The translations under genes and the position numbers were made by a program. From the NCBI RefSeq assembly GCF_056712565.1, contig NZ_CM160072.1: 64,000 nt of DNA. One strand, 5' to 3'. This document shows, piece by piece, positions 12,288 through 50,709 of this stretch. The notes beneath the pieces were generated by a model that worked only from the letters and a program-made list of their open reading frames with translations, was not told the origin of the DNA and did not search any database. Position 1 is the first letter of the stretch. Every line of letters starts with the position of its first letter.

Positions 12288-12996
12288 GTGCACAGAAAAC
12301 CCCCAGCTAGGCTGGGGGTTCCGGAAAGCTTTCAGCTTTGAGCCAGTTATTAAAACCCCTTTTGATTTGTTAAAACACCTTGCGGTCTGGCAACTGCAAG
12401 TGTCAAACAAGAAATCAAAAGGGGGTCCCAATGGGGAACGAAAAGAGCTTAGCGCACACCCGATGGAACTGTAAATATCACATAGTATTTGCGCCAAAAT
12501 ACCGAAGACAGGTGTTCTACAGAGAGAAGCGTAGAGCAATAGGCTGTATTTTGAGAAAGCTGTGTGAGTGGAAAAGTGTACGGATTCTGGAAGCTGAATG
12601 CTGTGCAGATCATATCCATATGCTTGTGGAGATCCCGCCCAAAATGAGCGTATCAGGCTTTATGGGATATCTGAAAGGGAAAAGCAGTCTGATGCCTTAC
12701 GAGCAGTTTGGTGATTTGAAATTCAAATACAGGAACAGGGAGTTCTGGTGCAGAGGGTATTACGTCGATACGGTGGGTAAGAACACGGCGAAGATACAGG
12801 ATTACATAAAGCACCAGCTTGAAGAGGATAAAATGGGAGAGCAGTTATCGATTCCCTATCCGGGCAGCCCGTTTACGGGCCGTAAGTAACGAAGTTGGAT
12901 GCAAATGTCAGATCGTGTGCGCCTGTTAGGGCGCGGCTGGTAAGAGAGCCTTATAGGCGCATTTGAAAAACCTCCGGCTATGCCGGAGGATATTTA
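12288..12996 (+). mobile_element. IS200-like insertion sequence (IS200/IS605 family), about 709 bp; boundaries approximate
   Basis: Contains a Y1 transposase gene; perfect subterminal palindrome ccccagc-tag-gctgggg at 12301-12317 (the characteristic IS200 left-end hairpin) and a second palindrome cctccggc-tat-gccggagg at 12971-12989 near the right end; the carB-caiF spacer is about 710 bp longer than in K-12. Confidence 0.8.
12431..12889 (+). CDS. tnpA: IS200 transposase TnpA (HUH / Y1 single-strand transposase)
   Basis: 152 aa from ATG 12431: MGNEKSLAHTRWNCKYHIVFAPKYRRQVFYREKRRAIGCILRKLCEWKSVRILEAECCADHIHMLVEIPPKMSVSGFMGYLKGKSS..., containing the HxH (HIHML) motif and catalytic Tyr region of IS200 TnpA. 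Confidence 0.9.
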   Translation: MGNEKSLAHTRWNCKYHIVFAPKYRRQVFYREKRRAIGCILRKLCEWKSVRILEAECCADHIHMLVEIPPKMSVSGFMGYLKGKSSLMPYEQFGDLKFKYRNREFWCRGYYVDTVGKNTAKIQDYIKHQLEEDKMGEQLSIPYPGSPFTGRK

Positions 12997-29300: not shown

Positions 29301-29534
29301 ATGACTGCAAAACGTACCACACAAAGTGTGACCGTCACCGTCGACCGTGAGTTAGTCAATCGCGCTCGTGATGCAGGCTTAAATATGAGCGCCACCCTTA
29401 CGGTTGCGCTCAATGCTGAACTTAAAAAACATGCAGCAACACGTTGGCGTGAAGAGAACGCAGAAGCTATCGCTGCGTTAAATCAATTGGCTGATGAAAC
29501 CGGATGTTTCTCTGATGAGTACCGGAGCTTCTAG
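29301..29534 (+). CDS. ccdA: CcdA-family antitoxin (chromosomal ccdO157-type)
   Basis: 77-aa ORF MTAKRTTQSVTVTVDRELVNRARDAGLNMSATLTVALNAELKKHAATRWREENAEAIAALNQLADETGCFSDEYRSF; ribbon-helix-helix N-terminus and W-x-EEN...GSF-DE-R-F C-terminus align with F-plasmid CcdA; GTATAC-like palindromes upstream. Confidence 0.88.
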   Translation: MTAKRTTQSVTVTVDRELVNRARDAGLNMSATLTVALNAELKKHAATRWREENAEAIAALNQLADETGCFSDEYRSF

Positions 29535-29536
29535 CG

Positions 29537-29852
29537 ATGCAATTTACGGTATACCGCAGTCGCGGCAGGAACGCCGCGTTTCCCTTTGTTATTGATGTTA
29601 CCAGCGACATTGTTGGTGAGATTAATCGCCGTATCGTTATTCCATTAACACCTATTTGAACGATTTAGCCGTATTCGCCCACCAGAACGGCTTAACCCAA
29701 TCCTTTTACCGGTAGACGGCAAAGAATATGTGCTCATGACGCATGAGACTGCAACTGTTCCAGTTAACGCGCTGGGAACGAAATTTTGCGATGCCAGCGC
29801 GCACCGAACGTTGATTAAAGGAGCATTAGATTTTATGCTCGACGGGATTTAA
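29537..29852 (+). pseudogene. ccdB: CcdB-family gyrase toxin gene, inactivated by a +1 frameshift
   Basis: ATG 29537 encodes MQFTVYRSRGRNAAFPFVIDVTSDIVGEINRRIVIPLTPI, then TGA at 29657-29659; the +1 frame from 29658 continues [64 protein letters not shown] to TAA 29850-29852. Both parts align with CcdB; the break is in the T-run of cct att tga. Confidence 0.85.
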
Positions 29853-34229: not shown

Positions 34230-36551
34230 TCACAAAGTGTTTTGATACGGCAGAATGTTCGAACGCAGCATCTCTTGCGTACCCAGACCGTAGTTGGAGC
34301 TCAGGCCGCGAAGTTCGATGTTAAAGCCGATTGCGTTGTCATATACCGCATGTTGTTTATCGTTATCCCAACCGTTCAGCTTCCGCTCGTAACCGACGCG
34401 AATCGCATAGCAGCAGGAGCTGTATTGCACACCTAACATAGAGTCGGCTTGCTTGTTCGCATTGGTGTCGTAGTAGTAGGCCCCAACAATGGACCAACGA
34501 TCGGCAATTGGCCAGCTGGCGACGGCACCTACCTGCGAAATACCATTCTTATATTGCTCAGCAGTGGAATAGTACTTAGGCAGCGTTGCCTGAATATATT
34601 CCGGGCTGGCGTAACGGTAATTCAGCTGTACCAGACGGTCTTCATCCCGACGGTATTCAATGCTGGAGTTACTGGTCGCTACGTTATCCAGACGTGTATC
34701 GTACTGAATCCCGCCACGCAATCCCCAACGATCAGAGATGCGCCAGTAAGTATCGCCTGCCCATACCAGTGAGCCCGTTTTGTCGTCATTCTCCCATGTT
34801 ATGTTGTCATCGCCAGTGCGAGACTCCGTGAAATAGTAGATTTGACCAACGGAAATATTAAAACGTTCAACGGCAGCATCATCATATATGCGAGATGTGA
34901 CACCGGTCGTCACCTGGTTAGCGGAGGCAATACGGTCAAGACCGCCGTAAGTCCGGTCCCGGAACAGGCCGGAGTAGTCAGATTGCAGCAGCGACGAGTC
35001 GTAGTTATAGATTTTGCTCTGATCGCGATATGGCACATACAGATACTGCGCGCGTGGTTCCAGTGTCTGGGTATAGCCCGGCGCCAGCATTTCCATATCA
35101 CGCTCGAAGACCATTCTACCGTCTACCTTGAACTGCGGCATTACACGGTTAGCGGACTCTGCTAGCTTGGTCGTGTTTCTGGAGTTATACCAGTCAAGAT
35201 TGGTTTGCTGATAATGGGTTGCCAGCAACTTCGCTTCAGTATTGATGCTGCCCCAGTTATTAGAGAGCGGCAGATTGATGGTCGGTTCCAGGTGAACACG
35301 AGTCGCCTCTGGCATGTCATCTCTGGTGTTAACAAAGTGCACCGCCTGGCCGTAAATTCGCGTATCGAAAGGACCGACATCGTTTTGATAGTAGTTAACG
35401 TCTAACTGCGGTTCTGCCGAGTAGCTACTGGTGTTCTGCTCGCTGAAGACCTGGAACTGCTTGGTTGAAACGGTGGCATTGAAGTTTTGCACCGCATAGC
35501 CAACGCTGAATTTTTGCGTTGCGTAGCCGTCGGTACTGGAACCGTACTTGTTATCGAAATCATTGAAGTAGCTAGGATCGCTGACCTTGGTGTAGTCGAC
35601 GTTGAAACGCCACACCTGATCCATGACCCCGGAGTGGTTCCAGTAGAATAACCAACGACGTGAACTGTCATCGTTCGGGTGTTCATCTTTATAGACTTTA
35701 TCTGAAGGCAGATAGTCCAGTTCCATCAAGCCAGCGCCCGCCTGGGAGAGGTAGCGGAATTCGTTCTCCCACATGATATTGCCACGACGATGCATATAAT
35801 GCGGCGTGATGGTGGCATCCATATTTGGCGCGATGTTCCAGTAATATGGCAGGTAGAACTCAAAGTAGTTGGTGGTGGTGTACTTGGCGTTCGGGATCAA
35901 GAAACCAGAGCGACGTTTGTCACCCACCGGCAACTGCAAATAGGGGCTATAAAAGATCGGTACCGGACCCACCTTAAAGCGGGCGTTCCAGATCTCCGCA
36001 ACTTGTTCTTCGCGGTCATGAATAATTTCGCTACCTACCACGCTCCAGGTGTCAGAACCCGGCAGACAGGAGGTAAAGCTACCGTTATCCAGAATGGTAT
36101 AGCGGTTTTCGCCACGTTGTTTCATCAGGTCCGCTTTACCGCGGCCCTGGCGACCCACCATCTGGTAATCACCCTCCCAGACGTTGGTATCTTTGGTGTT
36201 CAGATTCGCCCAGCCTTTCGGCCCTTTGAGGATCACCTGGTTATCGTCGTAATGGACATTACCGAGCGCATCAACGGTACGTACCGGCTCCGGTTGTCCT
36301 GGTGCCTCTTTTTGATGGAGCTGCACTTCGTCGGCCTGCAGACGGCTGTTACCCTGCATGATATCCACGCTGCCAGTAAACACGGCGTCATCCGGGTAGT
36401 CCCCTTTCGCGTGGTCAGCATTGATAGTCACGGGTAAGTCATTGGTATCGCCCTGTACCAGAGGACGGTCATAGCTTGGCACGCCCAACATGCACTGTGA
36501 GGCGAGGTCGGCTGCCAGTCCCTGTTGACTATAAAGGGCGGTGGCAATCAT
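34230..36551 (-). CDS. lptD: LPS-assembly outer-membrane protein LptD; the annotated-type start (ATG at 36582) is out of frame with the body, so this is an apparent signal-peptide frameshift
   Basis: 773-aa in-frame body [25 protein letters not shown]...; upstream the minus strand reads atg aaa aaa cgt atc ccc act c ctg gcc acc atg att, i.e. MKKRIPT in another frame, leaving 16 nt where 18 are required. See findings. Confidence 0.85.
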
Positions 36552-36836
36552 GGTGGCCAGGAGTGGGGATACGTTTTTTCATACGTTGATTTTATTGTTC
36601 CATCATCGGTAACGTTGCGCGTGACAAACGGTCAGAGACTAACGTACTCGTCATCTCTACGCTAGTGTTAATCCTGTCCGAATAGCGTCTGTGGTGTTAG
36701 GCACGGCATTGAATGACAGGTATGATAATGCAAATTATAGGCGATGTCTCACAATAGACCGCAGCCAGAAATGGGTAAAAGCGCCTTTATATTGTGGGAG
36801 ATAGCCCTGATATCCGTGTGTCGATTTGGGGAATAT

Positions 36837-44667: not shown

Positions 44668-44945
44668 GACTCCTTCGTGCCGGATGCGCTTTGCTTATCC
44701 GGCCTACAAAATCGCAGCGTGTAGGCCTGATAAGACGCGTCGGCGTCGCATCAGGCGGTGAATGCCGGATGCGCTTTGCTTATCCGGCCTACAAATCCGG
44801 AACGCGTAGGCCTGATAAGACGCGCCAGCGCCGCATCAGGCGGTGAATGCCGGATGCGCTTTGCTTATCCGGCCTACAAATCCGGAACGCGTAGGCCTGA
44901 TAAGACGCGTCAGCGTCGCATCAGGCGTTACATACCTGATGCGGC
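44668..44945. repeat. BIME array: three tandem copies of an approximately 96-bp REP-containing unit
   Basis: gccggatgcgctttgcttatccggcctacaaa ... gtaggcctgataagacgcg ... gcatcaggcggtgaat repeated three times between araD and araA. Confidence 0.85.
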
Positions 44946-49392: not shown

Positions 49393-49860
49393 TTTATATA
49401 TTTCACGGGGGATTAATTTTAGTTATTTTTAGTTGAATCGTTTTACCTGAATTATTTTTTTTCTTGATAAAATATCGACAACGATTTCTTTTTGTAAAAA
49501 TAAAACGAAGGCTTATGTATCGGGATACCCATCATGAACATATTGTCCGGTTGCATCAGGAGAATATATCAAGCGGTTTGTTCATCGTAGGAACACCACA
49601 TTGAGCGGTTATGGCAGGCACTTCACGCCACCATAAATGCCGTTCGATGTGGCAGTTGTTGAAAAAAGTACGGCATTCTATGAAAAACGCCAGTTACTCC
49701 CTCAGAGGAGAACATGGTCTGGCAAAAGTGTAGCGGCATCAGGCGCAGCTATCTTTGTAAATTCATTCATAAAATGAATTGTATACAAAAAAATATTGAA
49801 AAATAATATTTTTCCTTATTGATATTATTTGCTATACGTTTTTTTTGAGGGGAGATTGTG

Positions 49861-50709
49861 ATGAGCAAACGTAACGATATTACTGATGGAATATTTGCAA
49901 CAACGAAAAAGTATGGATTAGTTTATACCGAAGAGTTAGGTTGGATCGATTTGGGGCATGCTCAGGGACAAGATGCCAGAATATTAAAAAGAAAATTGGA
50001 GCAAGAACATTTTTCAACATATTACGATGAATTTCATGATTGGTATTTTCCTGTTGATTATCATCAGGAAATGGGAATTCGGAAAAAAATATTAGGAGTA
50101 GATCTTACATTTCATACCGGTGTTTATACGAAGGTTATGGTTCGTTCATGTCTTTCACCCACTCTTAAAGCAAGAGTTGCCTTAACGTTAATGTATGGAA
50201 CTGCGAAGAGGTTTGAAGCATGGCAAAACTCATTTATTTTTAACTGGTATACTGATAGCGGATTTAGTGCAGAAGATTTAGTCTCAGACTTGATTGGTTT
50301 TTATCGTGTATTTGGAACAGGCCCCGATCCACTTTTATTGGCAAAACCTTTATCTTACACAAAAGCCTTACAAATATGGGATACATATGGAGCGCCAGGG
50401 AATTTTAAAAATACTGAGTTTACGCCATTCTTATTTACAACCCATCCTCCTTTTAAAAAAAATCAACTAATAAAAAAGAAGCTTCCAGAATGGTTAAATT
50501 ATATAAAGCCATTAGATGAGTCTTTTTCAATATTGTTATATAATCAATATAATAATAGACCTGTTACTAATTATTATAAAGATAAAAACAGAATAAATCA
50601 TGAGTTGTATAGTTCATTATCAAGTTCGGGAGCTATAAAGTTTTCAGAATCTCCCTTTGAAAGACCGCTTTTTCTTTTCTTAAACCCTCATTATCCGCAC
50701 AGGTCGTGA
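49861..50709 (+). CDS. hypothetical protein, 282 aa, no signal peptide, family unassigned
   Basis: Uninterrupted 283-codon ORF in roughly 30% GC DNA (unlikely by chance); RBS gaggggag 6 nt upstream of ATG 49861 (GTG at 49858 also in frame); product rich in K/N/Y/F: MSKRNDITDGIFATTKKYGLVYTEELGWIDLGHAQGQDARILKRKLEQEHF... Confidence 0.7.
   Translation: MSKRNDITDGIFATTKKYGLVYTEELGWIDLGHAQGQDARILKRKLEQEHFSTYYDEFHDWYFPVDYHQEMGIRKKILGVDLTFHTGVYTKVMVRSCLSPTLKARVALTLMYGTAKRFEAWQNSFIFNWYTDSGFSAEDLVSDLIGFYRVFGTGPDPLLLAKPLSYTKALQIWDTYGAPGNFKNTEFTPFLFTTHPPFKKNQLIKKKLPEWLNYIKPLDESFSILLYNQYNNRPVTNYYKDKNRINHELYSSLSSSGAIKFSESPFERPLFLFLNPHYPHRS

Follow-up and report, generated by a model that had tools for sequence, protein, structure and literature searches.

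LptD is essential, and its N-terminal Sec signal peptide is in frame with the mature protein in 5,425 of 5,425 other genomes. In the window, by which we mean the whole 64,000-nt stretch of DNA analysed here (a B2/ST95-like Escherichia coli chromosome segment extending from ileS to leuO), the lptD gene as written has no such in-frame signal peptide, its leader being split over two reading frames. Does this locus record a real lesion in an indispensable gene, an unusual way of starting its translation, or a fault in the sequence itself?

Reading frames at the 5' end of lptD

The gene is ordinary lptD. Its DNA is that of the PGAP-annotated lptD (WP_000746170.1, 784 aa) of strain Z0117EC0054 (NZ_CP098206.1), the 2-nt gap excepted, and Pfam PF03968 (LptD_N, beta-taco) and PF04453 (LptD beta-barrel) are recorded for the exact 773-aa product. 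The neighbourhood (djlA / lptD-surA-pdxA-rsmA-apaG-apaH) is the usual one, and the upstream context of lptD is the same as in relatives. The features of the locus are as follows.

34230-36551, minus strand: lptD body open reading frame, 773 aa plus stop, from the ORF list; equal to residues 12-784 of normal LptD
36529-36582, minus strand: native lptD start codon (ATG 36582-36580) and 17-codon remnant, with stop TAG at 36531-36529
36560-36564, minus strand: site of the missing CT/TC dinucleotide, ACTCTCCTGG becoming ACTCCTGG, with four equivalent placements
36557-36561, no strand assigned: Dcm methylation motif CCAGG/CCTGG, which abuts or overlaps the deletion
36549-36551, minus strand: internal AUG, equal to Met12 of normal LptD and the sole possible start of the body frame
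36564-36567, minus strand: CCC_A, candidate +1 slip site proposed from the sequence, whose product would be the normal leader minus Thr7
36573-36579, minus strand: A6 followed by C (AAA_AAA_C), second possible +1 slip site, where an A is lost in seven noisy public contigs

On the minus strand, the start of lptD reads ...AATAAAATCAACGT ATG AAA AAA CGT ATC CCC ACT CCT GGC CAC C ATG, and from the internal ATG at 36551 the sequence is ATG ATT GCC ACC GCC CTT TAT AGT CAA CAG... Both frames were read directly on this strand, which bears out the split N-terminus described in the initial annotation. The ATG at 36582 indeed opens MKKRIPT... and is followed by a stop after 17 codons, and the 773-aa body is found as an open reading frame of its own, beginning at ATG 36551. 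The frameshift lies at codon 8 and cuts everything past MKKRIPT loose from the lptD start. A TGA overlapping the native ATG closes the body frame immediately upstream, which rules out a longer N-terminus in that frame. CUG, the only other in-frame start candidate, was rejected, the resulting leader having no charge.

The spacing from CCC to ATT is 16 nt in the window and 18 nt in relatives, as the initial annotation had counted. At the 5' end of the gene the window has ATGAAAAAACGTATCCCCACTCCTGGCC and all relatives have ...ACTCTCCTGGCC (minus strand); in the comparison with lptD of close relatives, the intact ACTCTCCTGGCC of the latter corresponds to ACTCCTGGCC in the window. The alignment with Z0117EC0054 contains a single 2-nt gap, in line with the loss of one unit from the CTCTCC tract that had been proposed. 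This gap has four equivalent placements, GA or AG on the plus strand, covering positions 36561-36565 of the ancestral state, that is 36560-36564 of the window. Judged from this alignment, the lesion is the loss of one CT/TC repeat unit.

Uniqueness of the gap and lineage of the window

A 100-nt query over the site has matches in 5,425 of 5,426 complete E. coli genomes, and none of these 5,425 matches is perfect. The best identity is 98.0% (100 matches over 102 columns), the shortfall consisting of the 2 gap columns. With so specific a difference from 5,425 gap-free genomes, chance is not at issue. The exact 39-nt junction occurs neither in genome_contigs (100,044 species-representative genomes) nor in metagenome_contigs (241 million metagenome records). 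These counts exclude a programmed +1 frameshift of the prfB type, the frame being broken in 0 of 5,425 other genomes. More generally, one may ask whether lptD is normally expressed through an obligatory frameshift or an internal start. The slippery-looking A6 and CCCC near the start would suit such programmed recoding, and nothing else does; conservation would be expected of it, but the frame is plainly open in 5,425 of 5,425 other genomes, stimulators are absent and the leader made from the internal start looks non-functional. We give this possibility practically no weight. A genuine pseudogene was also considered and rejected: the other 2,322 nt of lptD do not differ from functional alleles, none of the 5,425 other genomes shares the lesion, and the gene is established as essential.

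In a gene-position index of public assemblies, only nine contigs have exactly the same 773-aa product, and the 2-nt deletion of the window is present in none of the nine. Seven of them (the public Logan contigs L002, L004, L005 and L007-L010) have A5 instead of A6 right after the lptD ATG, one (L003, AEYT01000002.1) is an intact draft genome in which lptD was called from the internal ATG, and in one the contig end cuts the gene. Further homopolymer indels (T6 to T5, G6 to G5, A5 to A4) mark the A5 contigs as ordinary noisy assemblies. The truncated LptD entries of protein databases are thus mostly artefacts.

Compared with Z0117EC0054 over the full 64 kb, the window has three substitutions, and the lptD gap is the sole indel. 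With three substitutions and one indel over 64,000 nt, the view that lptD is the only core gene disrupted in the window is upheld. Only three pseudogenes are annotated in this part of Z0117EC0054, namely a ccdB-family toxin (an accessory gene), a fragment of an IS630 element and an ORF that is too short, and all three are also in the window. The substitutions are fixB L197L, araC D7A and leuC T238S, and none of them is found in any complete RefSeq E. coli genome. The first (window 22687, codon 197 CTG to TTG) is synonymous, is seen in 0 of 5,363 complete genomes and, being a C-to-T change at the Dcm-methylated inner C, has the classic signature of 5-methylcytosine deamination. The second (window 48520, codon 7 GAT to GCT) lies in the N-terminal arm of AraC, destroys a GATC Dam site and is seen in 0 of the 5,388 complete RefSeq E. 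coli genomes matching the segment. The third (window 58873, codon 238 ACC to AGC) is carried by public assemblies, GCA_027274065.1 among them, on at least 24 contigs in all.

The exact AraC-D7A and LeuC-T238S proteins are each encoded on 24 or more contigs, drawn from many independent assemblies, some of them Illumina-only. On this distribution of sequences, the araC and leuC substitutions can be taken as confirmed, genuine lineage markers. AraC D7A is present in a poultry-associated B2 lineage and also in L038 and L040, two divergent backgrounds with about 98.8-99.0% identity; the allele therefore recurs or recombines. Within the window, this marker is 11.9 kb away from the start of lptD. The exact DjlA and PolB alleles are widespread (9,015 and 7,621 blocks, respectively), with no lineage member among the blocks returned.

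The window belongs to this poultry-associated B2/ST95-like lineage, which includes 4957_2L3 (GCA_027274065.1) and 0038_1S2 (Illumina run SRR22784558), both described as Saskatchewan broiler isolates (PMC10190287). From 38501 to 61585 it matches GCA_027274065.1 with 100% identity, and several short-read contigs of the lineage are likewise 100% identical to it. The terminal branch leading to the window carries 0 private substitutions over the 23 kb compared with sister genomes. None of the lineage's short-read assemblies, including SRR22784558, is among the contigs that yield the truncated LptD product. These assemblies stop near window position 50,560, and the window continues through this point, which suggests that its source is a long-read or hybrid assembly. 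In the published study, isolates of the lineage were recovered on MacConkey agar, and lineage members are represented by Unicycler/Pilon hybrid assemblies with several-hundred-fold Illumina coverage (PMC10190287).

Several other features were recorded along the window. Between carB and caiF, an IS200C tnpA is inserted at 12431-12889 and is annotated in the identical DNA of Z0117EC0054. Between folA and apaH (29301-29852), the chromosome carries a ccdA-family antitoxin gene and, after it, a ccdB-family toxin pseudogene with a frameshift; Z0117EC0054 and S88 have the pair annotated in this way, and the window has the identical DNA. The araD-araA intergenic region (44678-44943) contains an imperfect direct repeat of 181 nt in two copies, which overlap with an offset of 85 nt, have 91.7% identity and are probably REP/BIME-type elements. 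At 49594-50709, between araC and yabI, an IS630-family transposase fragment is accompanied by two hypothetical genes. The short-read contigs of the lineage end inside the first of these hypothetical genes, near 50,560, which suggests a repeated element there. Finally, an apparent 7.9-kb insertion in S88-type relatives, seen as two-piece matches, turned out to be an artefact of joining the pieces; S88 is colinear with the window.

Consequences for LptD if the gap is real

If real, the lesion removes Lys-Lys-Arg and half of the hydrophobic core of the signal peptide. Translation from the internal AUG at 36551 would have to proceed with an anti-Shine-Dalgarno pairing of -1.5 kcal/mol, which amounts to no Shine-Dalgarno sequence at all; the native AUG is also weak in this respect (-3.3 kcal/mol) and has an A/U-rich leader. 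The peptide preceding the SQQGLA cleavage region would be a leader of 13 residues with no positive charge and about 7 uncharged residues, compared with 3 charges and 14 uncharged residues in the normal LptD leader. By the rules that govern Sec signal peptides, a short and uncharged leader is expected to export very poorly, and the leader predicted from the internal start should behave in this way. As to the phenotype, reduced Lpt function leads to sensitivity to bile salts or MacConkey medium and to vancomycin (10.1101/2025.04.10.648201).

Two routes could supply some LptD in spite of the gap. First, the stop codon of the remnant ORF is 20 nt downstream of AUG 36551, and some reinitiation at this AUG by ribosomes that end the remnant is conceivable. 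Second, a +1 slip at CCC_A would give MKKRIPLLATM..., and a slip either there or at AAA_AAC would restore a near-normal leader. Of the elements that stimulate slippage (a Shine-Dalgarno-like element upstream, a stop or rare codon in the A site), none is present around the slip sites, CCC being followed by ACU and AAA by CGU. A +1 yield of roughly 1% or less may be expected, as we infer from this context. A search of the literature for viable frameshifts in the lptD start region returned nothing relevant.

The gap could accordingly be a real and very recent mutation, in a cell that lives on a trickle of exportable LptD made by +1 slippage or by reinitiation at AUG 36551. The loss of a CT/TC unit is also a classic product of replication slippage, the window is otherwise clean, so that a random assembly error is not obviously expected in it, and both +1 products would have a near-normal signal peptide, with 2-3 positive charges and 13-14 uncharged residues. 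Moreover, compensatory low-level frameshifting that rescues indels in needed genes has been documented (PMC5009743). However, slippage without a stimulatory element would stay at its background level, presumably of the order of 1% or less, and the internal start would combine the lack of a Shine-Dalgarno sequence with a leader that is uncharged and whose hydrophobic core is too short. At about 1% of the normal amount of LptD, a strain should be sensitive to bile and detergents and is unlikely to have been isolated on MacConkey agar. In addition, the lesion has been inherited by no other sequenced genome searched. Taken as a whole, a recent mutation of this kind is unlikely.

Alternatively, the deletion might be real in a copy of lptD that is not the functional one. 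A second, intact lptD could come from a duplication collapsed in assembly or from a copy on another replicon; in a mixed culture, the mutant allele could have won the consensus. Among 5,425 lptD matches, 3 are on records labelled plasmid, so that extra or misplaced copies have some precedent; the window itself offers no direct argument for one. Nevertheless, the matching genomes carry exactly one copy of the segment (lowest 1, median 1, highest 1), and the window, colinear end to end with its relatives, contains no duplication junction. A second copy or a mixed culture is thus very improbable.

Origin of the gap and known systems

The 2-nt gap is probably a consensus error of a single assembly, and the lptD of the organism intact and ordinary. 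The short repeat CTCTCC, next to the Dcm-methylated CCTGG, would have lost one unit in basecalling, assembly or polishing, and this loss would split the normal lptD leader over two frames. The gap would then have originated in silico, not in the cell. Several lines of evidence favour such an error. The gap is a singleton, absent from every other public sequence searched; it would cripple an essential gene; and it stands on a terminal branch without substitutions over the 23 kb compared. A priori, a residual assembly indel is far more common than a genuine private frameshift in an essential gene that comes without private SNPs over the stretch compared. The gap also sits in a dinucleotide repeat that touches a Dcm motif, and long reads were probably involved in the source. 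Finally, a real null or near-null lptD allele should not survive isolation, and the sister short-read assemblies do not give a truncated product. As regards error-prone contexts, which comprise short repeats, homopolymers and methylation motifs, the site offers a CT/TC repeat overlapping CCWGG. Artefactual frameshifts in the start region of lptD do occur in public data, as the seven A6 to A5 contigs illustrate. The initial annotation had left the choice between a sequence error and an unusual start. Its first term is retained, the gap being a singleton that would cripple an essential gene; its second is disfavoured by the missing Shine-Dalgarno pairing at AUG 36551 and by the 13-residue uncharged leader.

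Some observations nevertheless speak against an error. The window is otherwise clean, with no homopolymer indels and no private substitutions where it was compared. If the source is a heavily Illumina-polished hybrid, one would not normally expect a consensus error of 2 nt in unique sequence. Furthermore, of the link to methylation only the weak Dcm adjacency of the deletion (P ~0.04) was left once the araC and leuC SNPs had proved to be real polymorphisms.

Methylation-linked nanopore errors had come under suspicion because two of the SNPs are on Dam- or Dcm-methylated bases and a Dcm site adjoins the deletion. In fixB, T stands in place of the inner C of CCTGG, and in araC, C stands in place of the A of GATC; with three SNPs, two or more would hit methylated bases by chance with a probability of 6e-4. 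The range of the deletion shares positions with the Dcm motif and is 1 nt away from the methylated cytosine, a situation that a random 2-nt deletion would produce with a probability of about 0.04. Errors of this type are well described (PMC6591954; PMC11610603): Dcm motifs accounted for about 70% of the consensus errors of older ONT basecallers, and no more than 70-80% of these were corrected by polishing (PMC6591954). The hypothesis that methylation-linked basecalling errors lie behind all four changes is refuted for the araC and leuC SNPs, which are found in independent assemblies, and the motif match at P ~6e-4 was a post-hoc coincidence. For the C-to-T change in fixB, genuine deamination of 5-methylcytosine is possible. 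A note of caution follows: a post-hoc coincidence of motifs can appear highly significant even when, as with the araC Dam-site SNP, the change is a real inherited polymorphism.

The anomaly is thus most probably not a real biological feature, and it matters chiefly for quality control. A frameshifted essential gene may be annotated as a pseudogene or as a product without signal peptide, and truncated LptD calls could mislead pan-genome and essentiality studies as well as surveys of vaccine or drug targets. Public data already contain truncated LptD calls, seven due to homopolymer errors and one due to a wrongly chosen start codon. The opposite case, in which the deletion is real and the sole lptD of a surviving natural avian-pathogenic E. 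coli clone is cut off from its start codon, we hold to be quite unlikely. Such a clone would depend on unprogrammed +1 slippage at CCC_A (MKKRIP-LLATM...) or AAA_AAC, or on backward reinitiation at AUG 36551. If this were true, a wild E. coli would live on trace LptD made by translational error, the floor for LptD would be unexpectedly low, and the finding would be of interest for LptD-targeting antibiotics; the evidence points the opposite way.

Three known systems can be compared with the window gap. The first is lptD4213 (imp4213), a viable E. coli lesion that likewise hits the essential lptD gene; if real, the window lesion is also expected to compromise the outer-membrane barrier. lptD4213 is reportedly a deletion of 23 codons, in frame and within the mature protein, so that neither the signal peptide nor the reading frame is affected. 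In contrast, the window lesion shifts the frame at codon 8 and thereby separates the entire protein from its start codon and signal peptide; the two lesions are not comparable. The second system is compensatory ribosomal frameshifting (PMC5009743), in which an indel likewise affects a needed gene; in the window, CCC_A and AAA_AAC are placed for +1 restoration of the frame. Most known cases come from mitochondria or viruses and have been passed on across lineages, whereas the window gap is not conserved, has no stimulator, and any product of it is a prediction from the sequence.

The third system consists of the residual small-indel errors of long-read and hybrid bacterial assemblies. Like them, the window gap is a single small indel that produces an apparent frameshift in an otherwise perfect gene, and it shares with them the short-repeat/CCTGG setting and, among the public sequences searched, the restriction to one assembly. 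Such errors are typically of 1 nt in homopolymers, whereas the gap is of 2 nt, lies outside a homopolymer and stands in a window that is otherwise free of errors. The gap is therefore an atypical member of this class, and it is nonetheless among these residual consensus errors that it is best filed.
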